The notes: a model not told the origin generated them from the sequence alone. Shown: positions 13,712-28,048, numbered from the stretch's first letter. The stretch is DNA of 33,516 nt from an uncultured archaeon (GCA_964356075.1 CAYHGC010000001.1:1-33516); one strand, 5' to 3'. Program-made: numbers and translations.

Positions 13712-13748
13712 GGTTATAACAATTCCCTAACCCCATTATCTCTGTAGT

Positions 13749-13821: not shown

Positions 13822-13924
13822 CTCGCCGCTTCCGACCGGCATTTCTTTCGTGGCGGACGATCGTGCGAACGATTAAATATCTACGATCTGATACCATACT
13901 ACTATTGTGAGGAGGATTTTTTTT

Positions 13925-14371
13925 ATGAAAACAACATTCAAATTTACGACGGGAATAGGGGTCCTGGCACTTGTGCTGGTGGCCTTGCTTCCGTTCGTGA
14001 GCAGTACCATCTACAACGGTCTTTTTGCACCAATCACGGTGACGAATAACAACGATGCTAATTCTATCCAATACGACGTGAATCTCGTTGCGTACGGGGA
14101 TGTGAATGGGTGTACGGACACCGATAACGGTGTCTATGGCGACATTAACGGAACCATCACGTGGAAAGATCCGCGCGACGTGAACATGACGACTCACGTG
14201 CAATCGGACTTCTGTGACTCCAACACGTCGGTTGTTGAAATGGCCTGTATTAGCCAAGTCAAAATCAACGGAGTGCAGTACCAGAACTACTTCATTGCGG
14301 TTCACGAGAACTGTAGCGAAATGGGTAAGACATTCTGTCAAACGACGGGCGGAATTGGTAAGTGCGTCTAA
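13925..14371 (+). CDS. Secreted Cys-rich protein, paralogue 1
   Basis: GAGGAGG RBS at 13909-13915, signal peptide MKTTFKFTTGIGVLALVLVALLPFVSS, and a mature domain with 6 Cys. Clearly paralogous to 14477-14938 (STIY.G, YGD, W.DP.DVN, K(I/V)NGVQ). Confidence 0.7.
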   Translation: MKTTFKFTTGIGVLALVLVALLPFVSSTIYNGLFAPITVTNNNDANSIQYDVNLVAYGDVNGCTDTDNGVYGDINGTITWKDPRDVNMTTHVQSDFCDSNTSVVEMACISQVKINGVQYQNYFIAVHENCSEMGKTFCQTTGGIGKCV

Positions 14372-14382
14372 TTTCGAGAGGG

Positions 14383-14412
14383 GGGGAAATAATTCCCCTT
14401 TTTCTTTTTTTT
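14383..14412 (+). terminator. GC hairpin plus T-run
   Basis: GGGGAA-ATAA-TTCCCC (14383-14398) followed by TTTTTCTTTTTTTT. Confidence 0.5.
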
Positions 14413-14476
14413 CAATTTTGTTCAACGAAGTGTTATATATCTCTAAGGGCGTTTTACCAATCGAGGAGGATTTGGA

Positions 14477-14938
14477 ATGAATTTTTTGACTCATAAATGG
14501 AAAATTCTCGGAATATTGGCCGTATTGGCTCTGATTCCTGTAGCATATAGTACGATTTACCCCGGTGGAAACACTCCGGTGACGTTTACCAACACCGATC
14601 TCAATGGTCCGTATGTGGCTAATCTTATCGGGTATGGAGACCATAACACGCAATGTCTGGATTTTCCGGATAAAGGATTCAAACCTTTGATCCCAAGCTT
14701 CATGCAATGGGCCGATCCCACGGATGTCAACTTCCCGGGCGGACCACCGAACATCCACAACCAAGGAGATGCGTGCTTGGATGCCAACACCCTCTTAGAA
14801 GTAGGATGTATTGAACACTTCAAAGTCAACGGTGTCCAGCATTCGAAGTACGTCATTGGAGCCGCGTTCAACTGTAAGAACATCTCCCCCACGAGTACGT
14901 GTGTGATGAATTTCAACCAGTTAGGACGATGTACGTAA
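14477..14938 (+). CDS. Secreted Cys-rich protein, paralogue 2
   Basis: GAGGAGG RBS 7 nt upstream, signal peptide, and the same Cys framework as 13925-14371. Confidence 0.7.
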   Translation: MNFLTHKWKILGILAVLALIPVAYSTIYPGGNTPVTFTNTDLNGPYVANLIGYGDHNTQCLDFPDKGFKPLIPSFMQWADPTDVNFPGGPPNIHNQGDACLDANTLLEVGCIEHFKVNGVQHSKYVIGAAFNCKNISPTSTCVMNFNQLGRCT

Positions 14939-14953
14939 AATAGACATTTAGTT

Positions 14954-14991
14954 GAGGAGGGATTTTTCCCTCCTCTCTTTTTTTATTTTTT
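14954..14991 (+). terminator. GC hairpin plus T-run (between convergent genes)
   Basis: GAGGAGGG (14954-14961) / CCCTCCTC (14968-14975), an 8-bp stem, followed by TCTTTTTTTATTTTTT. Confidence 0.55.
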
Positions 14992-16017
14992 TAACAATTC
15001 TAATACTCGTAATTGAACTTTGGACAAGGGCTTTTTCTCCAGTTTTTTGGAATCAAACCACGAAAGAGTAGAAGGGGTTGAATTCGTGAGAGTGGCTTCA
15101 AACACGTGCACGTGCTGGGTGAAATGAGAATAGGAATGCTTTACCTCTCCCTTCCTCGTTCCTATTTTTATCCGAATCCCCATTTCTTCAAACTTTTTTT
15201 CAATGTCATAGGTTGAATCCGTTAGCGGGGAATATTCCACCATGGGGCACTCCCACATGCCGTTCAATAATGCCGTTTGGCGCTGAACAAAACCCAGTGA
15301 GTCCACTTGACGAATGGCCGCCATCGCAAAATGCTTCTGGGGTGCTTTCCCCTTTTTGGCTTTTACGGGGAATGAGGATTGTTTGGAATAGCGATACGCG
15401 AAGCATTCTTTTTGCAGCGGACACGTACTGCACAATGGATTATCAGGAACGCAGATCAACGCCCCCAATTCCATTAACCCTTGATTGAACGCCCGGGCCT
15501 TTCCTTGCGGAAGAACTTCGTTTAATTTTGCATTGATCTTTTCTCTCGTTTTGGGAAGAGATACATCCTCTGAAATTCCCCAAAAACGAGTGGTCACCCG
15601 CAAGACATTCCCATCCACCACGGGAACGTTTTCGTTGAATGCAATGCTCGCGACTGCAGAGGAAATGTAGGGACCGAAACCTTTCAACTTCTCCAATTCC
15701 TTTTGGGAATGCGGGAGCTCGCCTTTGTGTTTCTCCACGACCTGCTTCGCCGCATCGTGCAGATTGCGCGCGCGGGAATAATACCCTAACCCCTCCCAAC
15801 TTTTCAACACCGTTTGAGGATCGGCATCCGCAAGGGCGTGCACATTGGGAAATTGTTTCAAAAAACGCGCATAATACGGCTGCATCTGATCAATGCGCGT
15901 TTGTTGCGCCATGATCTCCGATATCCACACGTGATACGGATCGTAAGCTTTCCGCCAAGGAAGCGGACGCTGGTTTTTCTGAAACCACTCCATGAGTTCT
16001 TGGGATGGAAAGTCCAT
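14983..16017 (-). CDS. mutY: A/G-specific adenine DNA glycosylase
   Basis: LPWRK..DPYHVWISEIMAQQTR, an HhH-GPD region (LKGFGPYISSAVASIAF), the 4Fe-4S loop CVPDNPLCSTCPLQKEC, and a C-terminal Nudix-like domain. Confidence 0.9.
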   Translation of the reverse strand: MDFPSQELMEWFQKNQRPLPWRKAYDPYHVWISEIMAQQTRIDQMQPYYARFLKQFPNVHALADADPQTVLKSWEGLGYYSRARNLHDAAKQVVEKHKGELPHSQKELEKLKGFGPYISSAVASIAFNENVPVVDGNVLRVTTRFWGISEDVSLPKTREKINAKLNEVLPQGKARAFNQGLMELGALICVPDNPLCSTCPLQKECFAYRYSKQSSFPVKAKKGKAPQKHFAMAAIRQVDSLGFVQRQTALLNGMWECPMVEYSPLTDSTYDIEKKFEEMGIRIKIGTRKGEVKHSYSHFTQHVHVFEATLTNSTPSTLSWFDSKKLEKKPLSKVQLRVLELLKK

Positions 16018-16059
16018 ACTATTCCTTTATCGTTGACATTTTTTAGGTATTGTATTCAA

Positions 16060-16485
16060 TTAGTGATTTTGAAGCTTCTTTGGTAAATACCGGAGCACCT
16101 TTCGGTCTATTTCTAAATCTAATGAGGAACCAATGATGGGACGCCAATGAACGGATTCGGCTTCGTTTGATGTAATTTTTCCTGTCCATTCGGTTACTAG
16201 GAAATAATGAAGATTGAACTTCAATCCAGATGACTGATAAGGGAGTGTGACTAGAAAGTGGTATTGTATTGGTCGAACTGTTAGTTCTTCTTTTACTTCG
16301 CGCAATAGGGACTCTTCAATGGTTTCGCCTTTTTCGATGCCCCCTCCTGGAATAACAAATTTTCCTGGATCAACTTTTTTGCTCATCTTACGTTTTTCAA
16401 TCAACATTTTATTGTTTTTTACCAGGAGAAAAGCAACACATTCGATGGCCTTTTCTACTGCACCGCTCACTCTTTCCTTTTTCAT
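16060..16485 (-). CDS. Nudix hydrolase (MutT-like)
   Basis: Nudix box GGGIEKGETIEESLLREVKEELTV. ATGA overlap with the upstream ORF at 16482-16485. Confidence 0.85.
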   Translation of the reverse strand: MKKERVSGAVEKAIECVAFLLVKNNKMLIEKRKMSKKVDPGKFVIPGGGIEKGETIEESLLREVKEELTVRPIQYHFLVTLPYQSSGLKFNLHYFLVTEWTGKITSNEAESVHWRPIIGSSLDLEIDRKVLRYLPKKLQNH

Positions 16486-17120
16486 TTTTTTTCACGCGGC
16501 TTCATGTTGTGCAATTCCTCGTCTTGCACATACTCGAGGTTGGTCATCAAACAATGGTAGGCTTTTTCCAATTCTCGACCCAAGTACGCAAAATGCTCTT
16601 TGCGTAAATTCAACTCTGTTTTCGTGGCAATGGTATGATACACATCAATGGGTTTCTTTCCCATGACTTTGAGAATAACACTATTTTTTTCATTGCAAAA
16701 ACCCGCTTCAATTTCGTTGGTTTCCCAATTGATTCGAATCAAAAAATAGCCTTTAGGATCTAAGACAAAGTGTTTGGTATCATCATACTCGGCTTTCATT
16801 TCCTGGGCATCTTTGGCTTGAATTTGATTTCCCACGAGCATATTTTTGGAATCAAGATCCATGACCACAAACGCGTTCACCGGACAGGAAGAAGCGGCAT
16901 CCACGGCACGTTTAATCCGCTCCGGGCTTCCTGAAATATCCACTGAAAACAATCGTTCTCCGATCGGCTTTCCATTCAATAAAATAGCAGTGGCGCGCGC
17001 ATGATCAAACCCAAAGGTTTGGGGGTCAGCTTTGTAACAGGGCTCGGAACCAATACACTTGGCCTCGTCAAACTCAATCCGAATACGCTTCATACCTTGA
17101 TCCATATCAGCTAAACCCAC
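16482..17120 (-). CDS. Ferredoxin-domain / DUF4346-like fusion protein
   Basis: The N-terminal part has a single-cluster ferredoxin pattern (AKCIGSEPC...CPVNAF). The C-terminal part (DPKGYFLIRINWETNEIEAGF...HFAYLGRELEKAYHCL...YVQDE) matches the DUF4346 pattern as I recall it. Confidence 0.6.
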   Translation of the reverse strand: MGLADMDQGMKRIRIEFDEAKCIGSEPCYKADPQTFGFDHARATAILLNGKPIGERLFSVDISGSPERIKRAVDAASSCPVNAFVVMDLDSKNMLVGNQIQAKDAQEMKAEYDDTKHFVLDPKGYFLIRINWETNEIEAGFCNEKNSVILKVMGKKPIDVYHTIATKTELNLRKEHFAYLGRELEKAYHCLMTNLEYVQDEELHNMKPREKK

Positions 17121-17252
17121 GCAAAACGGCTTTTAATGCCGTCTCGTACAACGCTCGTTAAAAAGCCTTTTCCTCGCTCTTTTCTTTGCCGGACTATACT
17201 CCATATTACGTGGATTTTTCCATTGAAGGTGGGGCGAATCAAATAAAGTGTT

Positions 17253-17325
17253 CCCGCCTTAGCATAGTAGCTAATGCGTCCGGCTGTAGACCGGAAGATC
17301 CCCGGTGCAAGTCCGGGAGGCGGGA
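17253..17325 (+). tRNA. tRNA-Tyr (anticodon GUA), archaeal type
   Basis: Manual cloverleaf. Acceptor CCCGCCT/AGGCGGG (C1-G72), D arm GCAT-AGTAGCTA-ATGC, anticodon arm TCCGG-CTGTAGA-CCGGA, 5-nt variable loop AGATC, T arm CCCGG-TGCAAGT-CCGGG, discriminator A. No CCA. Confidence 0.85.
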
Positions 17326-17328
17326 CTA
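17308..17328 (+). repeat. Direct repeat DR1 (attL core) = 3' end of tRNA-Tyr
   Basis: CAAGTCCGGGAGGCGGGACTA is identical over 21 nt to 25437-25457. Its 19-nt core AAGTCCGGGAGGCGGGACT is also found at 26963-26981. Confidence 0.9.
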
Positions 17329-17390
17329 TAACCATTAAATCAGTCCAGGAATATAGTATTCCAAAGGACATTTATCATTCAGCGGAAGGA

Positions 17391-18326
17391 TTGAAGAGAG
17401 CCCTGGTGGCCCTTTCCGCGGTTACAGCCATTAGTGAAGGTGGTAGGGGAGAGATACAACGGTACGTGCGATATTCTCTTGCCCAAGGAATCAAACCCAT
17501 TCGTGTTAGAAAAACAGTTTACATGTTGCGAGACATGTCTATCGTTCTAGGAAAACCATTTTCGGAATGCACTAGAGATGATATTGAAGGATTGATGGTT
17601 GAGATTGGCCAACGCGATTATGCGGAGTGGACAAAAGCCGATTATCGGATAATCCTTAAGCGGTTTTACAAATGGTTACTGGGTAACAATGAGGAATTTC
17701 CTATCCAGGTTAAATGGATTCGGTACCGAGAGCCAAAGAATACCATCTTACCAGAGGAACTACTAACCGAAGAGGAAGTTTTACGAGTAGTCGATAAAAC
17801 AAAATTGATTCGGGATAAAGCATTCATCTATTTACTGTATGAAAGCGGAGCGCGAATCGGTGAAATACTTACACTTTCAATCAAACATGTCACTATTGGA
17901 AATCCAATATCATCCATTTTAGTAAGTGGGAAAACGGGTCAACGAAGAATTCTATTTGTAAAAAGCGCAAGATATCTGAGAGAATGGCTGAGCGAACATC
18001 CGTTTAGAGAACATCCCGAATCCTCTTTGTGGGTTCGTATGGACTCTGCTCGAGTAAGCGGGAAGTGGACAAATCCAGCAGAAAAGGAAATCACCTATAC
18101 AAGTGTGAAGAAGCTTCTTGGGAAAGCGTTTTTGGAAGCCGGGATAAAGAAAAAACACCGATGTCACCTATTCCGCCATTCTAGAGCTACTTTTTTGGCT
18201 CAGCATCTAACCGAAGCGCAGTTGAAACAATTTTTTGGATGGACTCAATCTAGCGATATGGCCGGGAGGTATGTTCACCTAAGCGGGAGGGATTTAGACG
18301 GTGCAATTTTGAGAGTGTATTCATAA
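17391..18326 (+). CDS. Tyrosine recombinase / integrase (XerC/D-like)
   Basis: SAM-like N-terminal domain plus a catalytic domain with ...GARIGEIL..., HLFRHSRATFLAQH (HxxR) and GRYVHLS (catalytic Tyr). The tracked ORF (17274) starts inside the tRNA. There is no ATG after the att core, so the start is probably TTG 17391 or GTG 17406 and remains uncertain. Confidence 0.85.
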   Translation: MKRALVALSAVTAISEGGRGEIQRYVRYSLAQGIKPIRVRKTVYMLRDMSIVLGKPFSECTRDDIEGLMVEIGQRDYAEWTKADYRIILKRFYKWLLGNNEEFPIQVKWIRYREPKNTILPEELLTEEEVLRVVDKTKLIRDKAFIYLLYESGARIGEILTLSIKHVTIGNPISSILVSGKTGQRRILFVKSARYLREWLSEHPFREHPESSLWVRMDSARVSGKWTNPAEKEITYTSVKKLLGKAFLEAGIKKKHRCHLFRHSRATFLAQHLTEAQLKQFFGWTQSSDMAGRYVHLSGRDLDGAILRVYS

Positions 18327-18380
18327 TCGGTGGCGCTTCCGCTCAAATACCTTTTTTAACCAACAATTTTTCTCAATGTT

Positions 18381-18551
18381 ATGGGGATCATCGATGTTCT
18401 GGTACTTGTCACGTTAGTCGCGCTCTTCTTTTTTGCGTCAGGAGCTATCGCTAGTCACTATTTTTCAAAATGGATTGATGCAAAAGCGACTGAAAAGTAC
18501 AACCACTATCTACGTGCAAAAACAAAACAATCATTTTCCCATAATGGTTAG
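18381..18551 (+). CDS. Possible 56-aa single-TM protein
   Basis: Below the ORF-track cutoff. Reads MGIIDVLVLVTLVALFFFASGAIASHYFSKWIDAKATEKYNHYLRAKTKQSFSHNG. No clear RBS. Its 3' end overlaps the convergent gene by 21 nt. Confidence 0.25.
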   Translation: MGIIDVLVLVTLVALFFFASGAIASHYFSKWIDAKATEKYNHYLRAKTKQSFSHNG

Positions 18552-19253
18552 CAATTCGAGAAGGGTGTTTTCCGTTTTAGGAGAAATGATCCATGTGGTT
18601 AATGACATCTCACACTCTTTTTTTGTTAGTTTGATAATTCCTTCGTCTATTTTCGCTTCGATGTATTGAACGTCTTTGAAATGTTCCACTGGTTTGAATT
18701 TTACTCCTTCCTTCATTTTGAAAATTAATTTTGAATGAGTGTATTTTGTATTACGACCATTGGCATCCCCCATTTTTTCTTCACACTTTTCCAATTGGCC
18801 TTTAATGAGATTGCAGTTCGAGCGGGTCTCTTTGAGGAGTGTGTGGCAGGTATACTCTAAAGAAATTGTTTTTGCGAGGAGTGTGTCGGAATTCTTGAGG
18901 CGCTTTTTGTCGTCGTAATCTGGGTGAATGGTAGCCATTAGTCTAAATGGTATGTTGTCGATTTCAAAGTTGGCCTTGATCTCATTGAAATCGCTTCCAT
19001 GCTCGATGCGGTACAATTCGCCCATTGCCCTTTTGATTTCAGCGACTGTCATCGGAGAACCGAGGTTGATTGCCGTTTGAAAAATGAATTTCCTTCTGTC
19101 ATTGCGCTTTATGAAAACACGAATGGGTAAAATCACCCACTCGTAAATCCTTCCAAGGACTTTGTTAACCAAAAAATCAAGAACTGCTCCTACGAAGGGC
19201 AATACAATGTTTTGGAGGGCTGTCCATGCTAGTACAAGTTCTGCCCAAACCAT
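18531..19253 (-). CDS. Hypothetical protein with hydrophobic N-terminus (element A cargo)
   Basis: 240 aa. The N-terminal ~45 residues are hydrophobic (MVWAELVLAWTALQNIVLPFVGAVLDFLV...) and are followed by a soluble domain with no motif I recognise. A TTTAAAAAC TATA-like box lies about 30 nt upstream. Confidence 0.55.
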   Translation of the reverse strand: MVWAELVLAWTALQNIVLPFVGAVLDFLVNKVLGRIYEWVILPIRVFIKRNDRRKFIFQTAINLGSPMTVAEIKRAMGELYRIEHGSDFNEIKANFEIDNIPFRLMATIHPDYDDKKRLKNSDTLLAKTISLEYTCHTLLKETRSNCNLIKGQLEKCEEKMGDANGRNTKYTHSKLIFKMKEGVKFKPVEHFKDVQYIEAKIDEGIIKLTKKECEMSLTTWIISPKTENTLLELLTIMGK

Positions 19254-19304
19254 AGGAATGCCTCATCGAAGGATGTTTTTAAACAGAAATGACGTACTAC
19301 TCCC

Positions 19305-20177
19305 ATGCAACCACGAAGGGTTATCGACGCTGCCAAGGAAGACGCTCTTGCTCAGACTTATGAGCGCCACCTTTTTACTCAAGCGAGCAATTCCTATCTC
19401 CTCATTCCATCAGAGCCGTCCATGGATATCATCGGGATTTTGGAAATAACCCTTTCGGCGTTCAATGTTGAAACTACAAGGAAGTTACCTTCCCATATCA
19501 AGATTCCGTCTGAGTTCAGCGTCGACGATAAGATTACTTTGACTCAGAGTGCCGGACGAACCGCGCGTCACGGGGAAAAATTTCTCGGTTGGTTTCGGAT
19601 TGACGAATACGAGGTTCAAAGTGTGCAGTTTGATCTTTACGCTTTCCCCCGTACTCATCACGCATTTTTTACAGTTCAGCGCGTTGGCGAAGACAGTTAT
19701 CTACATATTCTGGCTACGCAAGAAAGAGCAAACTCGTTAATTTCTAATTTGCGTCCACTTTTGGAAGCAGAAGGGATTGCGATGGCGCGTTGTGTGTTAG
19801 ATGAAACACGCATTTACAAGGTTAAGGAGAAATTGGGGCTAAAGACCATTGAAGAAATTATTGATGGAGTTGTGCCAGGGGTCAAGTACCGTGCGACCGG
19901 TGATTTGGACAACCCTGACCATATTAAAATCACCAAAGAAGGAACGCGAAATAGTTTTGTTTTCCGATACGGTGCGTTGGACAAGAAAGAATTGGTTTTA
20001 TTTCGCATTAGCACTAGCGGATTGACGCACTTTCGTAGTAAAGTTACACCAAAGTTCCACATTGATTTTATCACAAACCACTTGATCCCGTTGTTTGCAT
20101 ACGAGCATTTGCTCTCCACTATTATGCCAGCAAGAAAAATCGACGGAGTTTCACATGCCGTTCAAATTCCGCACTAA
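19305..20177 (+). CDS. Hypothetical protein (element A cargo)
   Basis: 290 aa with no recognisable motif. Divergent from 18531-19253 across a 51-bp AT-rich spacer, with a TATA-like TTTTTAAAC about 25 nt upstream. Confidence 0.55.
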   Translation: MQPRRVIDAAKEDALAQTYERHLFTQASNSYLLIPSEPSMDIIGILEITLSAFNVETTRKLPSHIKIPSEFSVDDKITLTQSAGRTARHGEKFLGWFRIDEYEVQSVQFDLYAFPRTHHAFFTVQRVGEDSYLHILATQERANSLISNLRPLLEAEGIAMARCVLDETRIYKVKEKLGLKTIEEIIDGVVPGVKYRATGDLDNPDHIKITKEGTRNSFVFRYGALDKKELVLFRISTSGLTHFRSKVTPKFHIDFITNHLIPLFAYEHLLSTIMPARKIDGVSHAVQIPH

Positions 20178-20440
20178 GGGCGGATTTTTATTTTACTCAA
20201 ATCTATTGTCGCCTTGACTTTCGTCACTCTGCCCTCACGCTTCTTTTCCATCAAACCTTCTTTCTCAAGCATACTTACGTAGTCTGCGCATTTGTTATAC
20301 GCAAGATTAGTACTTTTGCTTAATTCTGTGACTGATTTCGGCTCTTTTTGTGTTAGTTCCAGCATTCTAAAGCGGTTCCTATTGGCCATTATCCTCATTT
20401 TTTGAAATAGTGCTTCATGAGAAAGCGGAGTTCTGAACAT
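20174..20440 (-). CDS. ArsR/SmtB-like winged-helix regulator
   Basis: NRFRMLELTQKEPKSVTELSKSTNLAYNKCADYVSMLEKEGLMEKKREGRVTKVKA is a typical small wHTH sequence. Confidence 0.65.
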   Translation of the reverse strand: MFRTPLSHEALFQKMRIMANRNRFRMLELTQKEPKSVTELSKSTNLAYNKCADYVSMLEKEGLMEKKREGRVTKVKATIDLSKIKIRP

Positions 20441-20460
20441 ACTCCATTTTTAGGGTAACG

Positions 20461-20492
20461 TTTATATGTCAATACAACACCAAATTTGGTGT
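20461..20492. promoter_or_regulatory. TATA box plus 16-bp perfect palindrome (candidate operator of the ArsR-like repressor)
   Basis: TTTATATG at 20461-20468. ACACCAAATTTGGTGT at 20477-20492 lies between the divergent genes 20174-20440(-) and 20509-21342(+). Confidence 0.5.
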
Positions 20493-20508
20493 AGTGTGAG
20501 GCGTTAAG

Positions 20509-21342
20509 ATGGCAAAAAAAGATGATCAGAAAAAAGAAGTGAAGAAAGTTGGTTTTGGAAGCGTTCTCTCTCTTTTGGGTTACATTTTTGGTGCCTTGTT
20601 TGTTGTATGGGGAATAGTTGGTTTGTTCAAAAGTTTTATTGGGGGACTGTTGATTATTATTGGTGGTCTTTTACTTATTCCAAAGTTCAACACGTTTATT
20701 CGTGAAAAATATAAAATTGAATTGACTAATGGCCTTCGCATCGCCGGTTTCTTTATTCTTTTTGTAATTGGTGGATGGATAGTGGCATTGGCGCCATCCC
20801 ATTCTAGTGGTTCATCAGTTGCAGATACTGCGGATAATTCAGGAACTCCACTTATTGTAATGAATATCAAAAGTGTTTTTCCAAGTCCTGATGATATTCC
20901 AACATCATTGAAAATTGGTGCTATCGGGGACTTACCCCCAAATGTGGATTATGTGCCACCATCGGATGCGAATTACGTGTTAGGAAAACACTCTGCAGGA
21001 GCAACGCAGACATATTACACTCCAACAGCGCTCGGTTTTGGTGGAGAAAAAATAACACTAGATGCTTACCTATTTGACAGCCCAGAAAGTGCCAGAGTTG
21101 GATATGATGCACTAATCAACGAAATAAAAGCCGGACGTGGATATAACGAAGAAAACTCAGGTTCAAAAAATTGTTTCGCATACTCCAATAACTCGGATCT
21201 TGTTATCCGTTGGGATGCAGCCTGCCTATGGGGTAATATCTACCTTAAAGTACGCGGTTACTCTGGAGGATATTCCTTTGATCCAGTGCATCCTAAAGAA
21301 ATAATTGGGTTGGTGGACAAACAATTAGAAAAACTAGGTTAG
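20509..21342 (+). CDS. Membrane protein with about 170-aa extracytoplasmic C-terminal domain, unknown function
   Basis: Lys-rich N-terminus, 3-4 TM helices (VLSLLGYIFGALFVVWGIVGLF..., LLIIIGGLLLIP, IAGFFILFVIGGWIVALAP), then a soluble domain. Confidence 0.55.
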   Translation: MAKKDDQKKEVKKVGFGSVLSLLGYIFGALFVVWGIVGLFKSFIGGLLIIIGGLLLIPKFNTFIREKYKIELTNGLRIAGFFILFVIGGWIVALAPSHSSGSSVADTADNSGTPLIVMNIKSVFPSPDDIPTSLKIGAIGDLPPNVDYVPPSDANYVLGKHSAGATQTYYTPTALGFGGEKITLDAYLFDSPESARVGYDALINEIKAGRGYNEENSGSKNCFAYSNNSDLVIRWDAACLWGNIYLKVRGYSGGYSFDPVHPKEIIGLVDKQLEKLG

Positions 21343-21740
21343 GCTGGCAGTTTTCTATTGGGTTCTAACCGTTTTGCAAGCTCCTCGAACGTGAGTTTCT
21401 TTCCTTCTGACTTAACTTTTTGTCGATTATCGAGGGCATTAATCATTGCGTTGCATAGAAATCCAATGCAGTTAGCCTGTGTCGTGTTTATTCGATTCAT
21501 GCGTACGTCGTTGATTGTTTGAGTGAGTAGTATAACAACGTCTTTCGGATTTTCTACAATAACTTCACTTTCAATGGGTTCAAGCATCTTCTTGCGACCG
21601 TTCTTTCCACCTAATATTTTGGCAGCAAGTCGTTTTTCAATAATTTCAGGTAGGCGCGAGTGCGCAAAACAAAACACATCATTGGATATTGTTTGCGCAA
21701 CGCACTTTTTGCCATCCGGCTTTAGGAAACCGCACTCCAT
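21339..21740 (-). CDS. Small Cys/His zinc-ribbon-like protein (mobile-element associated)
   Basis: ATG 21740 is preceded by GGGGGTGGTGG. MECGFLKPDGKKCVAQTISNDVFCFAHS resembles the Cx8C...CxxH knuckle seen at N-termini of phage and plasmid proteins. The tracked start (21818) would overlap the upstream gene. Confidence 0.5.
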   Translation of the reverse strand: MECGFLKPDGKKCVAQTISNDVFCFAHSRLPEIIEKRLAAKILGGKNGRKKMLEPIESEVIVENPKDVVILLTQTINDVRMNRINTTQANCIGFLCNAMINALDNRQKVKSEGKKLTFEELAKRLEPNRKLPA

Positions 21741-21777
21741 CCTACCACCACCCCCACAAGTAACACATATAACCGCC

Positions 21778-23118
21778 CTAACCGCGGTTAGTATCGCCAT
21801 CCCCTTCCAATAAATCAAAATAGCCTTTTGATTCTATATAATGTTTTACCGTGTCGGGCGACATTCGATATTTCACGCGGTCTTTATCGCGTTCTTTACG
21901 AAAAGGAGCTCGGCTCAATCTTTTCCCAATCCATTTTCTTAAATCAATTCCTTCGTTGATGTCTCCTTTCACCCAGCCAAGGACTTCGTCCATTTTGTAA
22001 TACCTTTCCTCCTTTACATTTTCCTTAATCCTCCGCCACAACGTCCGATCTGGGCTTTCTTCTTCTGTTATATCTCGTTGTTCAAATGTTTCATTAAGAT
22101 AATCAGCTATTCCATTATGCACGTCCATCCCAACTAGCATAGCGATGGAAAGCAGTCCCTTTGTTGTCTCAAGGTTGCGGTTATTCAATCGGTCATTAGT
22201 GTAGTGGTCGTACAATGATTGGATTTGCTCCCAGTTTTGCATTGTTGCAACGTAGCAAGAGTCTCGCAGTTCTTGCCATTGTTGGTCAATTTTTGGGGTC
22301 ATCCGTCCCTTCTCGGATGTTGATTTGAACAAACGAATTGGGATACAACGCGATAAGGTAATGGGTTCCAAACCTTCCGTATTGCTTATGATTTTAGGGC
22401 AGTACAAGTCAAAGGAATACGTTTTGTACCCGTCTTTGTATGTTTCTGTGCGTGATGTTTTTCCTCCTTTTTTGTACCCAATTTTTAGCATTAAATTAAT
22501 GGCGCGCTGTTTCAAAAAATCCATACCGTCATAATCATCGATGAAAAAAGTTGATTGATTGTGATGCACAAGCCTGAACAAGGATGATTCGCTTGGGTTT
22601 GTTGCATTCTGGGAGTTAAAACAAACTTGCTCCATCAATCGCATGAATTTTGTTTTCCCAGATTCCATTTCTGAGTGGAAAAATAGGTATCCGTAGGCAT
22701 CGAAAAGACAATGGCAGTATGTTCCAATGCTGTATACTGCAGCGAGATCAAGGATGCGCTCATCTGGAACGTCCATGTATCTTTCATACTGTTCTCTTAT
22801 CGCATGGAATAACTCCAGAATGGTTATTTCAGGCACGCTACCCTCTAGGAAGTTGTCAATGGATGCGTTACTCCAAAAAGTACCTATCCGTTGGATTTGG
22901 TCCATCGTTCGTATTCCGCTATTACGTATTTCGTCCTCGCCTTTATCGACCCTGAAAAAATCGACCTTGTAACTTCGGTCGGAAAATATAAGGCAGTTTG
23001 TTTCACCACCCGGTAAATCGATTACTTTTCCGAAATAAAAGAGGCCATCGTGAACCCCTTGATTCAATTTCAATGAAGTTTTTTCCGGATGACCAAATAG
23101 TTCATTCTTATTCACCAT
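21778..23118 (-). CDS. P-loop NTPase of mobile-element replication type (DUF3631/SF3-helicase-like, tentative)
   Basis: Walker A HSEMESGKTKF and Walker B STFFIDDYDG. The downstream block ...IGYKKGGKTSRTE...FDLYCPKIISNTEGLEPITLSRCIPIRL resembles plasmid/phage primase-associated ATPases. AAGGAG RBS upstream. Confidence 0.55.
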   Translation of the reverse strand: MVNKNELFGHPEKTSLKLNQGVHDGLFYFGKVIDLPGGETNCLIFSDRSYKVDFFRVDKGEDEIRNSGIRTMDQIQRIGTFWSNASIDNFLEGSVPEITILELFHAIREQYERYMDVPDERILDLAAVYSIGTYCHCLFDAYGYLFFHSEMESGKTKFMRLMEQVCFNSQNATNPSESSLFRLVHHNQSTFFIDDYDGMDFLKQRAINLMLKIGYKKGGKTSRTETYKDGYKTYSFDLYCPKIISNTEGLEPITLSRCIPIRLFKSTSEKGRMTPKIDQQWQELRDSCYVATMQNWEQIQSLYDHYTNDRLNNRNLETTKGLLSIAMLVGMDVHNGIADYLNETFEQRDITEEESPDRTLWRRIKENVKEERYYKMDEVLGWVKGDINEGIDLRKWIGKRLSRAPFRKERDKDRVKYRMSPDTVKHYIESKGYFDLLEGDGDTNRG

Positions 23119-23290
23119 ATCATGTATTATCTCCTTTTACCCGACCATTGCTGGTTCGGACGGTTTGGATTCCCGCACCGTAACATTTGTGTTCAACCAT
23201 GTTGCTTCAAATATGTTTTGGGTTCTCTATGGAAAGTTTTTTCAATACATATTTCATATATAACTTATAGGAAATATATCTGTCGCAAAA

Positions 23291-23755
23291 GTGGGATCAC
23301 GTGTGTCTTCAAAACCAATTACACGGGAACAGTATATTGCAAAACTGGAAGAGGACGAAGGGAAAAAAATTGAGAAAATTAGTGCATTTGGAAATATCTT
23401 AAATCATTGTTCGAGATTCCGTGAAGAAAAAATTTCTACTCTCGATGAGTTTAGGCGTCTTTTTTGGTGTCCAAAGGGGCCGACTGGTCCTCATGATGAA
23501 ATAGATAAACTTTCAAATAACACAAGAAATATTGGTGCTATACTTGAGAGTGCGCGGGAAGATTTGGACCAATGTCCAAAAGCATATTTTGAAGATAGAG
23601 AGCCTGTTGGGCCAAAAAGATGTTTTTTCTTGATAGAAGCGGGTGGTAGAAAAGAAATTTATAATGGAAATCACCGCGCGGGTGGAATTATCCGTAAAAT
23701 TTTACAGGGAAGTGAGTTCAAAGAAATTACTTCCTATGTGGGAGTTATTGAATAG
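23291..23755 (+). CDS. Hypothetical protein with ParB/DGQHR-like NGNHR motif (tentative)
   Basis: GTG start about 30 nt downstream of the CATATATAAC TATA box. The C-terminal segment FFLIEAGGRKEIYNGNHRAGGIIRKIL resembles the ParB-nuclease-fold (D/N)GxHR motif. Confidence 0.45.
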   Translation: MGSRVSSKPITREQYIAKLEEDEGKKIEKISAFGNILNHCSRFREEKISTLDEFRRLFWCPKGPTGPHDEIDKLSNNTRNIGAILESAREDLDQCPKAYFEDREPVGPKRCFFLIEAGGRKEIYNGNHRAGGIIRKILQGSEFKEITSYVGVIE

Positions 23756-24494
23756 TATTTTTTTCTTTGTTTATCTCTGGAAAGGAACGCAATTTACGAA
23801 GTTCTGTGTTGAGGCTGGATTTTGGAAAATGTTTTCTTTCAAAGTTGCCTAGTTCACGAATGGCTGTCTTGTTGGTCTTCAAGGACTCTTCAAAAAACCA
23901 TTTATTGAAAGAGATAATTTCTGAATGGTAGGTTGTTACCAGTTTTTTGATATTGATATCGTCGTTGCTATTTTTTAGATGCTCCTTCACTACTGGGTTT
24001 ATTTTTTCGTCATTCAATAGTTGACTCCTTTTTATCCAAACGTCTTTTTGATAACTTTTTTCTCCACTAGAGGACCATGAAGAAAGTTGTCTTACAACCG
24101 TGTTTGCTCCCTCCCTGTGCATTATGAAATCCCAAATTTCTTGTAGCAATTGAACGTCGATATTTTCCATCATTTTATCAATTCTTTTGTTACACCCATC
24201 GTCAAAGTTACTGTTTCCAAAATGTTTTCTATATCGGTAGGTATATCCAACCAATGCACGGGCACTAAGACAATAGTTGTGGAAAAAGCGTTTTATTCTA
24301 AATCCATAGTTTGCTGAACGCCTTCCATCGAACGCCTTAATATCCCTTTCAAAATTGTTGATTTCTTTTACCAATTGCTTGTAATTTTCATGAGTAATAT
24401 AGAACTCCGTTTTAATCATGTGGAGTTCTCTGAATATCTTGTACCCTTCGAGTTCCATTATTTTTCGACGCGCCTCTGTTAGAGCAAAGTTCAT
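23745..24494 (-). CDS. Hypothetical helical protein (Abi-like is only a guess)
   Basis: 249 aa. It contains ...RFFHNYCLSARALVGYTYRYRKHFGN... but no clean catalytic motif that I can identify. Confidence 0.5.
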   Translation of the reverse strand: MNFALTEARRKIMELEGYKIFRELHMIKTEFYITHENYKQLVKEINNFERDIKAFDGRRSANYGFRIKRFFHNYCLSARALVGYTYRYRKHFGNSNFDDGCNKRIDKMMENIDVQLLQEIWDFIMHREGANTVVRQLSSWSSSGEKSYQKDVWIKRSQLLNDEKINPVVKEHLKNSNDDINIKKLVTTYHSEIISFNKWFFEESLKTNKTAIRELGNFERKHFPKSSLNTELRKLRSFPEINKEKNTIQ

Positions 24495-24552
24495 TTAGAA
24501 ATAGTCTGCTGTTGGGTTTAATGGCCTAACTCAAAGGGCCCAAACCGCGGTA

Positions 24553-25377
24553 ATGGCTCTTTCTGCGTTTTCTCCTGCTATACTTTTTATGAATTGGGGT
24601 TCTTATAGACTATATGGTGGTTTCGTGGTAAAGAAAAATATTCGGGCCATTTTTGACCTGCTGATTCAGCGTCGATTCTGGATACTTGGTGTTCTATTCT
24701 ACGGATTTTTTTTGTGGTTGCTGACAACAATGTTATGGTCCATGAATACTCCATTGGCCGTCGTAGTATTAGCTGCTCTTGTTGGTCCTCCGCTTGTTGC
24801 AAAATTTATCTATGATCGTCCACTTGGCCCTATGCTTGAATTCCTTGGTAGAGGTGTGGAGACAGGAATGGTCCCAAGAGGGGAAGCACCGGATGCTAAT
24901 CAGAAAAAGAGTCTAAAAATCATGTTCGACACGAATGTTTTCAATAAAATGGCTGATGGGTTGCTGGATATCGAGCAGCTGAGGCGCAGTACTCTTTATG
25001 GTTTTGAGTATTTTACAACGCATGTGCAAACGGATCAAATCGCAGCAACCCCTGATAATGAAAGCGAAAAACGAAAAAGAATGGTCTTATTTCAAACCGA
25101 AATTAAGCCAACGGTTTTACCCACAACGTCCTTCGTTCTTGGAGTTTCTCGACTGGGTTATGGTAACCTTAGTGATGGTAAGCTGCTTGACAAAATTCGG
25201 AGAGGAAATAAAAGCATCCGAAAAACAACGGACGCGCTCATTGCTGAAACGTGTATCAAAAATAAAATAACCCTTGTTACTGAAGATACTGAACTAATAA
25301 AGCGCATGAAAGAGGAAGGTGGGAAAGTCATCGGAATTCAGGAGCTAAAAGAATTCCTTAACTTCACTGTCCGTTGA
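24553..25377 (+). CDS. Membrane-tethered PIN-like domain protein
   Basis: The N-terminal ~95 aa hold 2-3 TM helices. The C-terminal ~150 aa have PIN hallmarks: KIMFDTNVFNKM (first Asp) and TTDALIAETCIKNKITLVTEDTELI (distal Asp). An alternative shorter start at ATG 24922 cannot be excluded. Confidence 0.55.
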   Translation: MALSAFSPAILFMNWGSYRLYGGFVVKKNIRAIFDLLIQRRFWILGVLFYGFFLWLLTTMLWSMNTPLAVVVLAALVGPPLVAKFIYDRPLGPMLEFLGRGVETGMVPRGEAPDANQKKSLKIMFDTNVFNKMADGLLDIEQLRRSTLYGFEYFTTHVQTDQIAATPDNESEKRKRMVLFQTEIKPTVLPTTSFVLGVSRLGYGNLSDGKLLDKIRRGNKSIRKTTDALIAETCIKNKITLVTEDTELIKRMKEEGGKVIGIQELKEFLNFTVR

Positions 25378-25436
25378 TTAATATCATACAGATAATGGTG
25401 TTATATAAAGTATGAAACATATTATTTTTTATTAGC

Positions 25437-25457
25437 CAAGTCCGGGAGGCGGGACTA
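25437..25457 (+). repeat. Direct repeat DR2 (attR of element A / attL of element B)
   Basis: CAAGTCCGGGAGGCGGGACTA is identical to 17308-17328. The flanking sequence is unrelated to the tRNA. Confidence 0.9.
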
Positions 25458-25529
25458 ATCCATTCACCTACTCAAGCTTCGCTTTCGTCCCGCCGGACGG
25501 ATTAAATATCAAAGAACGGTTTGTATCCT

Positions 25530-26201
25530 ATGAGTTCTGAAGATTGCCGTTCGTTAGACGATTTATGGAGAATAGTGAATGATACCCATACTCAGTTTTT
25601 TCCAGAAAATAAGTTAATGCCTATTGTAGGAAATGGCCGTATTGAGCGTCCGGACTATATGTTTGTTTTTATTAATCCAACGCACCGCAACATTAGCTCA
25701 AACCCTTTATGGAAAGGTCCTCGTTTTCCTTTCATTGGAACCAAGCCCGTCTGGAGAATTTTTAATCGCGCGGGATTATTTGACGATGAGCTGATGAAAC
25801 AAATTGAGAGAGAGCCCAATTGGTCGTTGGAATTTACTGAAAAAGTAAGGTCTTTCTTGGATTCGAAATCGTTTTACTTTACTAATATTGTGAAATGGAC
25901 AGGCGCCGACGCTACATTGCCAGATGCACAGAAAGTCAAGTTATTTCTGCCTATTTTGAGAAGGGAGATTGAGATAGTTCAGCCCAAAACCATTGTAACA
26001 TTTGGGTTAATTCCATTTACATTTCTCACACAAGAAACAATCAGGCTACAGGATTATTATGATAAATTCGTTCAATCAAGCAAACTTGCAGCTTACCCAT
26101 TGAAAGTAGGCAATCATCAAACCAGCGTGGTCCCGTGCTATTTCCCTGTGGGAAGAGGGGACCCTAAACGCGCAGTTGAAATGCTAAAGGCAATAAAATA
26201 A
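25530..26201 (+). CDS. Uracil-DNA glycosylase superfamily protein with non-canonical motif A
   Basis: ...FYFTNIVKWTG...LPILRREIEIVQPKTIVTFG... matches the family-4-like UDG core (v..tN.vKc...C...L..ei....Pk.iv.lG). The usual GE(A/G)PG position reads FVFINPT. ATG 25530 lies about 25 nt downstream of TTAAATAT. Confidence 0.55.
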   Translation: MSSEDCRSLDDLWRIVNDTHTQFFPENKLMPIVGNGRIERPDYMFVFINPTHRNISSNPLWKGPRFPFIGTKPVWRIFNRAGLFDDELMKQIEREPNWSLEFTEKVRSFLDSKSFYFTNIVKWTGADATLPDAQKVKLFLPILRREIEIVQPKTIVTFGLIPFTFLTQETIRLQDYYDKFVQSSKLAAYPLKVGNHQTSVVPCYFPVGRGDPKRAVEMLKAIK

Positions 26202-26273
26202 TACTGAAAACGCGAGTTTAAGGTATATATTTATATGCGTTATATGTCTATATTAGTGTAGTTGGTGAAGTTT

Positions 26274-26528
26274 ATGCAGGTCTTACACTATCCTACTCTC
26301 AAAACCGTTCTTTTAGTCGAAGAAATTCTCAAAGAGGCTAAAGAACCCCTTTCTCGTTACGAGTTACTAAAACGAGCAGGAAATAAAATTATGCGTCCCA
26401 CATTAGATGTTATTCTTGATTACTTGGAAAAGCGCTTTATGGTTTTAGATACTCCTAAAGGAATTATTTGGGTATACGTTCCTAAAGACAAAATGAAGCG
26501 TTTGATGGATGCGAGCGTGGAAGTATGA
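26274..26528 (+). CDS. Small winged-helix protein, putative antitoxin
   Basis: About 84 aa (MQVLHYPTLKTVLLVEEILKEAKEPLSRYELLKRAG...). ATGA overlap with the downstream toxin-like ORF. TATA-rich upstream region at 26225-26255. Confidence 0.5.
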   Translation: MQVLHYPTLKTVLLVEEILKEAKEPLSRYELLKRAGNKIMRPTLDVILDYLEKRFMVLDTPKGIIWVYVPKDKMKRLMDASVEV

Positions 26529-26878
26529 AAGCACGCGTCCGATTGACCGGCCAAGCGCTGGAAGAATATGAACGACTTAAGAAACTCGTAACCGAAGAAG
26601 AATCTAAAGGAATTAAGAGTTCAGAGAATCAAACCCTGTGGCGTTCAATTAATGAAAAGATTGAATGGTTGAAAGAAGATCCCTTGCGTGGAGAAGTGGT
26701 TTCAAAGAAGGACATTCCGAAAGGCTTGGATGTTGACAATTTATTCAAAATTCGCTTGGCACAGTATTGGCGAATGCTTTTTACGATTCGCCGCCAAGAA
26801 ATTGAAGTCATTTGCTTTGTTTTAGTTATTGAGTCGCATCCCGATTATGATAAACGGTTCAAGATAAAGAAAAGGTAA
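26525..26878 (+). CDS. RelE/ParE-superfamily toxin-like protein
   Basis: The C-terminal ...LFKIRLAQYWRMLFTIRRQEIEVICFVLVIESHPDYDKRF matches the RelE/ParE pattern (l+.g.yR+i+.i....i.+..i..H..Y). Confidence 0.6.
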   Translation: MKARVRLTGQALEEYERLKKLVTEEESKGIKSSENQTLWRSINEKIEWLKEDPLRGEVVSKKDIPKGLDVDNLFKIRLAQYWRMLFTIRRQEIEVICFVLVIESHPDYDKRFKIKKR

Positions 26879-26962
26879 GATAATGCATCCTGTCAACATC
26901 ACTAACTGCACTAACCTCAGCGAGTCCCATAAGGACGAGCCTTCGAATAAGAACCGGTTGCT

Positions 26963-26981
26963 AAGTCCGGGAGGCGGGACT
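26963..26981 (+). repeat. Direct repeat DR3 (distal att copy; displaced tRNA 3' remnant)
   Basis: AAGTCCGGGAGGCGGGACT is identical to the cores of DR1 and DR2. The upstream AAGAACCGGTTGCTAAGTCC resembles tRNA positions AAGATCCCCGGTGCAAGTCC with indels. Confidence 0.85.
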
Positions 26982-27090
26982 CATCCTTATCCATGTCTCG
27001 TCTTTTGACTTTTTTTTATTGTGGCGAAAGCGCGTCCGAGTCATTATTAACATTTTCTCGACAAAATGATGCTATGGAGAATGAATCCCT

Positions 27091-27576
27091 ATGACGAATG
27101 ACTTGAAACCGATGCAGATTATTTTGAATTTGAATACGCGATTGTTTATCAATGCCCTCGAAGGAATTACGGAAGAGCATTGGAATGCACGCATGAGTGA
27201 CCATAACAACCCACTCAAATGGATTGCGGCCCATGTGGTGAGTTCACGCTACCTGTTTCTGACTCTCCTCGGAAAGCCCGCTCAAAGTCCGTATCAGGAA
27301 TTGTTTGCCAATCAGCGACCATATGACGCAAAGGATGTCTATCCTTCATTAGAGGAGGTCAAAAAAGAATGGGAAACGGTTTCCGCTTTGTTGAAGGTTG
27401 CCCTTGAATCTCCTTCTCCTGAAGCATTGGGAAAGAATCCTCCGTTTCCGCTTCCAATTGAGGATCAAACCAATTTTGGAGCCATTGCTTTTTTTGTCGA
27501 ACATGAAAGCTATGAAATTGGACAGTTAGGATTTTTGAAAAAATACCACACGAAAGAAGCCATGAATTATTCGTAA
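27091..27576 (+). CDS. DinB-family protein
   Basis: ...EHWNARMSDHNNPLKWIAAHVVSSRY...FFVEHESYEIGQLGFLKK has the His-triad four-helix DinB_2-like pattern. Confidence 0.65.
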   Translation: MTNDLKPMQIILNLNTRLFINALEGITEEHWNARMSDHNNPLKWIAAHVVSSRYLFLTLLGKPAQSPYQELFANQRPYDAKDVYPSLEEVKKEWETVSALLKVALESPSPEALGKNPPFPLPIEDQTNFGAIAFFVEHESYEIGQLGFLKKYHTKEAMNYS

Positions 27577-27682
27577 TTAGCAGACTCCCGGTACACCACC
27601 GGGAGTTCATTCTTTTCTCTATTCTAACTTTGCTTTCTCCAAGCGACACGATTTAATAAGCGCTTTTTGGTCGTGGTTAGTG

Positions 27683-28048
27683 ATGAAAGAAGATAGTAAG
27701 ACACTACAACGCGTCCGCAAAATGAGCTTTGCTGGAGTCTATCCGTATTACATTGCTAAAGCCGAAAAAAAAGGACGAACGAAAGAGGAAGTCGATGAAA
27801 TCATCCGTTGGCTGACGGGGTATACGCAGAAAAAATTTGAAGCTCAACTGGAAAAACGAACCGACTTTGAAACATTCTTTGCAAAAGCGCCTAAGCTCAA
27901 CCCATCGCGGAAATTAATCACTGGGGTAATTTGCGGTGATCGAATCGAAGAAATCAAAGATCCAATTATGCGCGAAGTTCGCTACTTAGATAAACTAATT
28001 GATGAGTTGGCAAAGGGCAGACCCATGGAAAAAATATTGCGGAAATAA
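27683..28048 (+). CDS. DUF2200 family protein
   Basis: [34 protein letters not shown] is the characteristic DUF2200 N-terminus. Confidence 0.7.

Follow-up and report, generated by a model that had tools for sequence, protein, structure and literature searches.

The 3' end of a tRNA-Tyr gene as a probable attachment site for tandem integrative elements in an Iainarchaeota-like archaeon

Introduction

Why does the 3' end of a tRNA-Tyr gene occur three times, always in the same orientation, along one short region of an archaeal chromosome? The region, positions 17,253 to 26,981, lies in a stretch of 33,516 nucleotides from an uncultured archaeon (GCA_964356075.1 CAYHGC010000001.1:1-33516), which was analysed at its full length and is called the window here. 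The three copies delimit two segments, element A and element B, and a preliminary description made from the sequence had read these as elements integrated in tandem at the tRNA gene. Archaeal arrays arise by re-use of attachment (att) sites, as in the cryptic integrated elements (CIEs) of Thaumarchaeota (PMC6563490), and tandem accretion and cis-mobilizable elements (CIMEs) have been described for pairs of an integrative and conjugative element (ICE) and a CIME in Firmicutes, such as ICESt1/CIME (PMC5704250). DPANN archaea have tiny genomes, and little is known of their mobile elements or of how they gain genes. We propose that the 3' end of tRNA-Tyr is, very probably, an attachment site for site-specific integrative elements in this DPANN archaeon, and that the window holds a tandem array left by two successive integrations.

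Results

Three direct copies of the tRNA-Tyr 3' end delimit two elements

The tRNA-Tyr gene is intact and has no long variable arm, the form typical of archaeal and eukaryal tRNA-Tyr, and the same gene is present in the related contigs L005-L009 and L011. The features that define the array are the following.

17253-17326, + strand: tRNA-Tyr (GTA), 74 nt, the proposed integration target attB (ARAGORN; Rfam RF00005, 63.2 bits)
17308-17328, + strand: att copy 1, the tRNA 3' segment CAAGTCCGGGAGGCGGGACTA, which is attL of element A
17329-25436: element A, 8108 nt
25437-25457, + strand: att copy 2, a hybrid site where A ends on its right and B begins on its left (junction confirmed by contigs L003 and L042)
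25458-26961: element B, 1504 nt
26962-26982, + strand: att copy 3, attR of element B, with the 19-nt core at 26963-26981 and chromosomal flank after it

Copies 1 and 2 of CAAGTCCGGGAGGCGGGACTA are identical (21/21), and copy 3 has two mismatches, both at the outermost positions, which leaves the core AAGTCCGGGAGGCGGGACT. The cores bounding element B therefore lie at 25438-25456 and 26963-26981, and all three copies are in direct orientation on the + strand. Beyond these, the window has no match to CAAGTCCGGGAGGCGGGACTA at up to three mismatches, and 0.00 chance matches to the 21-mer are expected (100 shuffles). With only three copies in the window, the repeat is not a generic dispersed one. 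The repeat search and shuffles thus reproduce the copies that the preliminary description had placed at 25437-25457 and, as a 19-nt core, at 26963-26981, and the measured lengths agree with its estimates of about 8.1 kb for an integrase-bearing A and about 1.5 kb for a B that lacks one. Its division of the repeat into 18 nt of tRNA and 3 following nt holds if the gene ends at 17325, as Rfam has it (17253-17325), and becomes 19 plus 2 with the ARAGORN end at 17326.

Empty, A-less and fully occupied forms of the site

Exact-protein look-ups place the region in Hainich groundwater metagenomes, in the 0.1-um filter fraction of well H43. The same kind of look-up gave no match for a 212-aa frame of the left flank or for the helicase, which start-codon choice or coverage probably explains. 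Species-representative genomes were scanned with 22 nt of the tRNA 3' end, which gave eight contigs: seven from uncultured archaeal metagenome-assembled genomes (MAGs), two of them named Candidatus Iainarchaeum, and one from a MAG labelled Saccharibacteria that is probably mis-binned.

An unoccupied site, which should join 17328 directly to about 26982, had been proposed as the check on tandem integration, and contig L006 (CAZKYB010000036.1, an uncultured-archaeon MAG) has this junction. Its tRNA-Tyr core runs directly into the homologue of window 26983 onward, so that the empty site stops exactly at the core. L006 6541-7179 is 85% identical to window 27604-26963, and the DinB-like protein encoded there is 89% identical at the amino acid level. 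A second form comes from well H43 itself. In contig L001 (replicate 2), window 17274-17328 is joined to 25458-27996 at 99.96% identity; since the tRNA gene is joined directly to element B, this is an A-less form of the site. L001 begins exactly 55 nt before the point at which the two forms diverge, a start that, we infer, matches a true branch in a k=55 assembly graph.

The tandem form is covered at all of its junctions by three independent contigs at 99.9-100% identity: L002 (H43, replicate 1) spans 13432-17959 and runs from the tRNA into the integrase gene; L003, from a Logan assembly, spans 24289-26239 with the end of A, the att copy and B; and L042 (replicate 1) spans 22984-27479 at 100% identity, with the end of A, att copy 2, B, att copy 3 and the DinB gene. 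Occupied and A-less forms are thus both present in well H43, and relatives do not all carry the same 9.7 kb: L006 and L001 are polymorphic precisely at the repeats.

Base composition, also suggested as a check, sets the elements apart. The flanks have a GC content of 0.447-0.462, compared with 0.404 for A and 0.398 for B, mean GC3 is 0.38 in the elements and 0.48 in the flanks (Mann-Whitney p = 0.0007), and tetranucleotide correlation with the flanks is 0.80-0.87 over 18-27 kb against 0.91-0.95 elsewhere. Flank GC is itself uneven (about 0.40 also at 1-3.5 kb), so composition by itself is not decisive. Together with L006, L001 and the contigs of the tandem form, it supports the reading of tRNA-targeted tandem integration.

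Element A pairs an integrase with a regulator and a putative helicase

The genes of element A are listed here.

17274-18326, + strand: tyrosine integrase, Xer-like, intact (Pfam Phage_integrase PF00589, 1.8e-18)
18531-19253, - strand: variable cargo protein of 240 aa whose N-terminus is hydrophobic (no match in Pfam, PHROGs, PADLOC or NCBIfam)
19305-20177, + strand: 290-aa orphan protein, p290 (its sole match among 5.8 billion clusters is its own fragment; no family match)
20174-20440, - strand: 88-aa winged helix-turn-helix (wHTH) regulator, conserved core (Pfam HTH_45, 1.4e-6)
20509-21342, + strand: 277-aa predicted membrane or secreted protein, variable cargo (hydrophobic segments in the translation; no family match)
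21339-21818, - strand: 159-aa Cys-rich protein, downstream of the helicase gene (from the translation; no family match)
21778-23118, - strand: 446-aa P-loop AAA+ protein with a predicted SF3/MCM helicase fold, putative replication protein
23291-23755, + strand: 154-aa protein (no family match)
23745-24494, - strand: 249-aa predicted helical-bundle protein with a beta hairpin, p249 (unnamed widespread family; no Pfam match)
24553-25377, + strand: 274-aa protein with N-terminal transmembrane (TM) segments and a weak C-terminal PIN/VapC-like match (Pfam PIN 1.4e-4, NCBIfam VapC 1.1e-5, both sub-cutoff)

Pfam and the signature residues agree with the earlier statement that a complete tyrosine integrase lies directly inside the first repeat. 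The catalytic R-K-H-R-H/W-Y residues of a tyrosine recombinase are present within the signature ESGARIGE, GKTGQRR, HLFRHSR, GW and RYVH, and ARIGE, GKTGQRR, HLFRHSR, GW and RYVH are invariant in four aligned homologues. The best NCBIfam match is XerA_Arch (2.3e-24, under the family cutoff); XerA, XerC and XerD are the best solved relatives, the nearest being the Pyrococcus XerA-like structure 4a8e (PDB; 1.1e-7). Homologous integrases also adjoin tRNA-Tyr in L005 (61% identity by pairwise BLASTP, 62% in a four-way alignment), L009 (54-55%) and L029 (56%). The integrase frame is open back through the att core into the tRNA, and its sole in-frame ATG, at 17274, falls within the tRNA gene; the gene caller chose this ATG in L002. 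An N-terminal D-I-Y-x-S motif (17367-17381; DIY at 17367-17375) is invariant in the four homologues. We considered and rejected a partitioned integrase of the SSV type: the integrase at the left end is complete, with N-terminal and catalytic domains, whereas at the right end TAG closes the frame and the last gene encodes the TM-PIN protein.

The 446-aa protein belongs to a very small family, with 14 homologues in 5.8 billion clusters, none named and one of them with DUF3631. It is 43% identical to its homologues in L029 and in L014, L025-L028 and L030; distant relatives (20-28% identity) lie on IMG/VR contigs. G154-K155-T156 and D194 are invariant in the family. An AlphaFold (AF2) model (pLDDT 85.9) matches, in Foldseek searches of the PDB, MCM subunits (5.6e-6), the helicase region of African swine fever virus PrimPol, PriRep1, adeno-associated virus Rep40 and SV40 large T antigen. 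TM-scores for these matches are only 0.3-0.4, which counts against the helicase assignment. On the strength of the model we take the protein to be, tentatively, the replicative AAA+ helicase of element A, in which no primase or origin was identified. The adjacent 159-aa frame was examined as a frameshifted C-terminus of this protein, whose homologues are 505-612 aa long, and was rejected for want of similarity to them.

L005 encodes a wHTH protein 78% identical to that of A, and L009 and L029 give weaker matches. L029 repeats the same architecture in another lineage: an intron-containing tRNA-Tyr, integrase, wHTH, helicase homologue and second att copy are followed by a 4.5-kb element that lacks an integrase (CARDB, PIN_3) and by a third att copy. 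Integrase, wHTH and helicase form the conserved core of the A family. The remaining genes have no relatives in the related elements L005, L009 and L029 and are orphan or variable cargo.

The cargo had been singled out as the most likely place for an undescribed system, a hope that the searches did not bear out. PADLOC returned no match for the ten proteins submitted (eight of A and two of B, without the integrase, the wHTH and the UDG-like protein), and a defence system in the cargo was set aside on this ground. In PHROGs, the integrase and regulator of A are the only matches, with none to structural, packaging or lysis families. The 249-aa protein has 174 remote homologues with conserved R/H/N residues; searches of PDB and BFVD with its AF2 model (pLDDT 91) gave no significant fold match, the best, non-significant resemblance being to pore-forming toxins of the ClyA/NheA/SmhA type. 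A HEPN/Abi-like identity, considered for its R..H motifs, was rejected when Pfam, PDB sequence and fold searches gave no significant match.

Element B is found in several contexts

Element B carries the following features. A family scan found no integrase or recombinase among its genes.

25458-25508, + strand: conserved left arm of B, about 44 nt, with a TATA-like box (the same arm stands at 11 cassette boundaries)
25521-26201, + strand: uracil-DNA glycosylase (UDG) superfamily protein, 226 aa from TTG or 223 aa from ATG 25530 (Pfam UDG, 6.8e-8)
26262-26528, + strand: 88-aa protein (84 aa from ATG 26274), putative antitoxin or regulator (no family match)
26525-26878, + strand: 117-aa weakly ParE/RelE-like protein, putative toxin (Pfam ParE_toxin, E 0.012, sub-cutoff)

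The 88-aa and 117-aa reading frames share 4 nt, which suggests a putative toxin-antitoxin pair. Element B stands in at least four settings: immediately behind the tRNA (L001), after A (window, L003 and L042), between two other elements (L023) and at position 2 of an array (L011). It is therefore not tied to A. In L023, from well H51, the att site, the UDG gene and the 88-aa gene are 99.9% identical and are followed by different DNA; in L011, an Iainarchaeum MAG, a copy of B with 88% nucleotide and 93-99% amino acid identity has a recombinant arm and is fused to a TauE-like gene (read from the translation). The UDG-like protein is 93% identical in L011 and 100% in L023, and the 117-aa protein is 99% identical in L011. 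Both mosaics reflect rearrangement of B and are silent on its origin. Another cassette, in L007, has the 88-aa gene at 91% identity, whereas host proteins of L007 are 57-63% identical to those of the window; this comparison of sequences points to horizontal exchange of the gene. B keeps attL and attR and has no recombination or transfer genes, which is how a CIME is defined, and integrase remnants were seen neither in B nor in its homologues.

Small cassettes at tRNA-Tyr share a conserved arm

Related Iainarchaeota-like arrays occupy tRNA-Tyr in L011, with five att cores in 6.4 kb, and in L007, with at least three. Their cassettes measure 0.8-2.5 kb and hold one to three genes each, with no integrase within 8 kb. 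Judged by eye from the translations, the cargo appears to include HicA/HicB-like pairs, a Fic protein, an AAA ATPase, a glycosyltransferase, a cupin and other genes.

An arm of about 45 nt follows the core at 11 distinct boundaries, that of B in the window and ten in L007, L008, L011, L013 and L017, with a mean identity of 77% and unrelated cargo behind it. Its consensus is aatccattcaccNactcaaRcttcgctttcGTCCCGCCggacgg, with two sub-variants, and copies lie at 3319-3370, 5709-5760 and 7638-7690 in L007, at 7750-7799, 5530-5581, 3085-3133 and 2140-2187 in L011, and at 7773-7820 in L008. Outside this count, B's own arm is present again in L023 and L001, and the boundary in L024 is the same as that in L008. 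The arms of L011a and L011d, which belong to one array, are near-identical. The final core of each array continues into chromosomal DNA without an arm, so the arm belongs to the cassettes. Arms of A, L005 and L009 differ from the cassette arm, and a second arm type is present in L014, L016 and L023.

The arm terminates in GTCCCGCC (25487-25494 in B), an inverted copy of the core segment GGCGGGAC. This pairing is kept in 10-11 of the 11 copies with zero covariation in RNAalifold, the core being invariant. A structured RNA or known RNA family was rejected as an identity for the arm: an Rfam scan matched tRNAs only, and RNAalifold recovered nothing beyond the core/arm inverted repeat. Behind the arm of B, a TATA-like box, ATTAAATA, lies at 25501-25508, 29 nt upstream of ATG 25530, and four cassettes (window B, L007a, L011a and L013) have such a box after the arm, 28-29 nt upstream of the first ATG. 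This arrangement, read from the sequences, fits a leaderless archaeal promoter. The conserved arm itself is taken to be a candidate recombinase-binding region.

In L029, 46-nt repeats (2062-2107 and 6577-6622, 78% identical) flank both att copies outside the tRNA and overlap the starts of the PIN_3 and Fic genes. They may be another conserved arm or a promoter module in a different lineage.

Host and flanking sequence

Proteins of the window flanks (MutY-like, NUDIX, ferredoxin/DUF4346) are 56-63% identical and syntenic in L005, L007 and L008. We infer from this similarity and synteny, and from the titles of the related records, an Iainarchaeota-like host among the DPANN archaea. Two records with an archaeal tRNA-Tyr and integrase, or with A's orphan protein, L009 (CAYIUH010000023.1) and P0015 (NCBI AAB649_02270), are filed as Saccharibacteria/Patescibacteria; they are probably mis-binned mobile DNA of the same 0.1-um fraction.

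Elsewhere the window codes for ordinary chromosomal functions. Scans for bacterial promoters and terminators, and for tandem repeats, gave no useful information on this archaeal DNA. To the right of the array, outside the elements, the first chromosomal gene is:

27091-27576, + strand: DinB-superfamily gene (Pfam DinB_2, 4.7e-13)

Genes of DNA-repair type surround the site, with MutY-like and NUDIX genes to its left (14983-17120) and the UDG-like gene of B and DinB to its right (25521-27576); this clustering around tRNA-Tyr may be coincidence. A tRNA-Pro gene lies at 13749-13822 (ARAGORN, with Rfam in agreement). The interval from it to the MutY-like gene (13749-14982) is variable: the two are adjacent in L007, 1.16 kb apart with two unknown open reading frames in the window, and 3.7 kb apart in L008, where a 12-nt repeat of the tRNA-Pro 3' end only is found (2133-2144 and 3661-3672). 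A second att-bounded island at tRNA-Pro was considered and rejected, the window having no att-like repeat there. The tRNA-Tyr genes of distant relatives contain introns of about 70-170 nt and were missed by ARAGORN (L004 4425-4610, L010 760-908 and L029 16956-17190); despite the intron, the att site in L029 is the end of the 3' exon.

Discussion

A model of successive integration

We propose that cassette B was present first, as in L001, and that element A then integrated into the tRNA-proximal att copy, which would have created the hybrid site at 25437-25457. The integrase would recombine the 19-nt core of the element with its identical counterpart in the 3' end of the tRNA, and the core copy borne by the element would restore that end. 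Copy 3 has T at 26962 where the tRNA has C, and the identity of the att copies stops after ACT in copy 3 or ACTA in copies 1 and 2; these three base differences bound the core and suggest that exchange takes place within AAGTCCGGGAGGCGGGACT, from the T-loop to the acceptor end. Because it keeps both att sites, element B would be mobilizable in cis or in trans, in the manner of a CIME, and may move through the integrase of a neighbour, for instance that of A acting in cis or in trans, or through recombination between att sites or arrays.

Several observations weigh against this proposal. The integrase of the window lacks any ATG, GTG or TTG from the core to the DIY motif, an interval in which the integrases of L005, L009 and L029 all possess a start codon, TTG or GTG; the first canonical starts 3' of the core, TTG 17394 or GTG 17406, both lie past the motif. 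In a circular form of A, moreover, the TAG at 25432-25434 would shut the integrase frame just before the core. This copy may thus be poorly expressed or reliant on a non-canonical start: either translation begins at such a codon, or a shorter protein is made from 17394 or 17406, or the gene is expressed only when integrated. Among the assembled contigs compared, no circular junction linking 25436 through the core to 17329 was found, and no circle or excision product of A or B was seen. L001 could be an ancestral, never-occupied variant and not a product of excision. The core-adjacent arm of A is unlike the B-type arm, which makes any action of A's integrase on B conjectural, and no transfer, packaging or capsid genes were identified in A.

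Alternative explanations

The cassette arrays invite an alternative in which the 3' end of tRNA-Tyr acts as an integron-like platform for gene capture. Cassettes of 0.8-2.5 kb, each with a module of about 65 bp (19-nt core plus arm of about 45 nt with an inverted copy of the core), would be inserted, excised and reshuffled singly by a trans-acting Xer-like integrase and would spread between species, as a tRNA-based analogue of attC cassettes; B would be one such cassette, and A an unrelated user of the same core. The L007 and L011 arrays, with three to five or more cores between small integrase-less cassettes, are what such a platform would leave, and so are an arm shared at 77% identity by 11 boundaries despite unrelated cargo, an inverted repeat kept in 10-11 of 11 copies, the near-identity of the L011a and L011d arms, cargo that resembles that of chromosomal integrons (again from translations read by eye), and the occurrence of B at varied array positions and as a mosaic. 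We nonetheless regard the idea as unlikely. An IntI-type integrase is missing (the NCBIfam integron-integrase models, with cutoffs of 265 and 435 bits, score 41.7 and 19.9), and the arm has no recombinase linked to it. What bounds the cassettes is a tRNA 3' end without attC motifs (R''-L''...L'-R', GTTRRRY) or attI, genes stand in mixed orientation with apparently their own TATA-like promoters, and the inverted repeat shows no covariation, its core being invariant. Decay of larger elements followed by accretion would also give the same picture, as in the ssrA islands of Dehalococcoides (PMC3146451). That element A might be the provirus of an undescribed archaeal virus family, with the 240-, 290-, 277-, 154- and 249-aa proteins serving in the virion or in egress, gains some force from its several predicted membrane proteins, from the distant helicase relatives on IMG/VR contigs and from a combination of integrase, helicase and regulator that is also typical of small archaeal viruses. 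We hold it to be quite improbable: PHROGs gave no structural, packaging or lysis match, the candidate structural genes are not conserved in L005, L009 and L029 as capsid genes normally are, and the model of the 249-aa protein, the sole orphan modelled, has no viral fold match. A lack of recognisable homology does not by itself prove that virion genes are absent. Since none were found in A, and since its att core and integrase find no match in IMG/VR, it is best called a cryptic integrative element, probably plasmid-like.

A different doubt is whether anything at the locus still moves. A and B could be fixed, immobile remnants with fossil att repeats, the differences between genomes having come from homologous recombination between strains; the questionable start codon of this integrase, the mosaic state of B and other cassettes, the recombinant arm of B in L011 and the missing circular junction would all fit. 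Yet, within a single well and between flanks of 99.96-100% identity, the forms with and without A differ exactly at the 21-nt repeat. In addition, att copies 1 and 2 match at 21/21 positions, the catalytic residues of the integrase are complete, and the end of the empty site in L006 coincides with the core; together these points make immobile remnants a very improbable reading. An assembly chimera of strain variants joined at a short repeat could be suspected from the coverage of 3-4x (L001, L002 and L042) in short-read metagenomes, but its likelihood is close to nil. The repeat, at 21 nt, is below usual final k-mers; three independent assemblies, including the Logan assembly of ERR3858116, reproduce the junctions; and L042 crosses the end of A, att copy 2, B, att copy 3 and DinB in one contig at 100% identity. 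Two successive site-specific integrations at tRNA-Tyr remain the reading that we favour.

Relation to known systems

The mechanism, tandem accretion, is already known; what is new is the host lineage, an element family with a rare helicase, and arrays of arm-bearing mini-cassettes. Element A is closest in kind to archaeal CIEs and integrative plasmids with a non-partitioned integrase of the pNOB8 type (PMC6563490), which likewise have the integrase beside attL, direct repeats of about 20 nt from the tRNA 3' end, a restored tRNA, a replication protein of the AAA+/SF3-MCM type, mostly unknown cargo, and arrays formed by site re-use. It differs from them in its DPANN (Iainarchaeota-like) host, in a helicase of a very small unnamed family, and in a Xer-like integrase without a close named relative. 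No described element related to A was found in Pfam, PHROGs or IMG/VR.

Accretion among ICEs, integrative and mobilizable elements and CIMEs (PMC5704250) offers a parallel for the pair, with an integrase-less element that keeps attL and attR and a composite bounded by three direct repeats. In contrast to that system, there are no conjugation or mobilization genes here, and the B-type cassettes are much smaller (0.8-2.5 kb), share an arm and have no recognisable remnants of an integrase gene; an origin of these cassettes by decay is therefore unsupported. The Dehalococcoides ssrA islands (PMC3146451) are also tandem islands, set between 20-bp repeats that copy a tRNA-like gene at its 3' end; nucleotides around their repeats are conserved, insertion at the T-loop was inferred, and some islands lack the integration module and were proposed to be mobilized in cis. 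Those islands are bacterial, much larger and served by a serine recombinase (DsiB), whereas here the recombinase is of the tyrosine type and the arm lies 3' of the repeat and contains an inverted copy of the core.

Tycheposons of Prochlorococcus (bioRxiv 10.1101/2020.12.28.424599) combine a tyrosine recombinase with helicase/primase modules at tRNA genes in a streamlined genome; successive integrations push older ones inward, partial tRNAs are scattered, and cultures are mixed for presence and absence. They are bacterial and use other integrase and replication families, so the likeness is one of resemblance only, not of membership. Integrons, including archaeal ones (PMC9668308), are similar in their arrays of small cassettes, a recurring site with an imperfect inverted repeat, toxin-antitoxin and mixed cargo, and integrase-less arrays such as clusters of attC sites lacking integron integrases (CALINs). 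Unlike integrons, the present arrays have no IntI, attC or attI; their site is a tRNA 3' end, and their cassettes hold one to three genes in either orientation, apparently with their own promoters.

Significance for DPANN archaea

This locus is a clean example, with support at the population level, of integration at a tRNA gene in a DPANN archaeon. It brings out a small family of tRNA-Tyr-targeting integrative elements that carry an integrase, a wHTH regulator and a rare AAA+ protein, probably a helicase, and the same tRNA end gathers small cassettes that are common to several genomes. Should the arm turn out not to serve as a dedicated recombination site, the locus would be textbook tandem accretion in a new lineage. 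Should it turn out to do so, the arrays would represent a simple archaeal system of cassette exchange.

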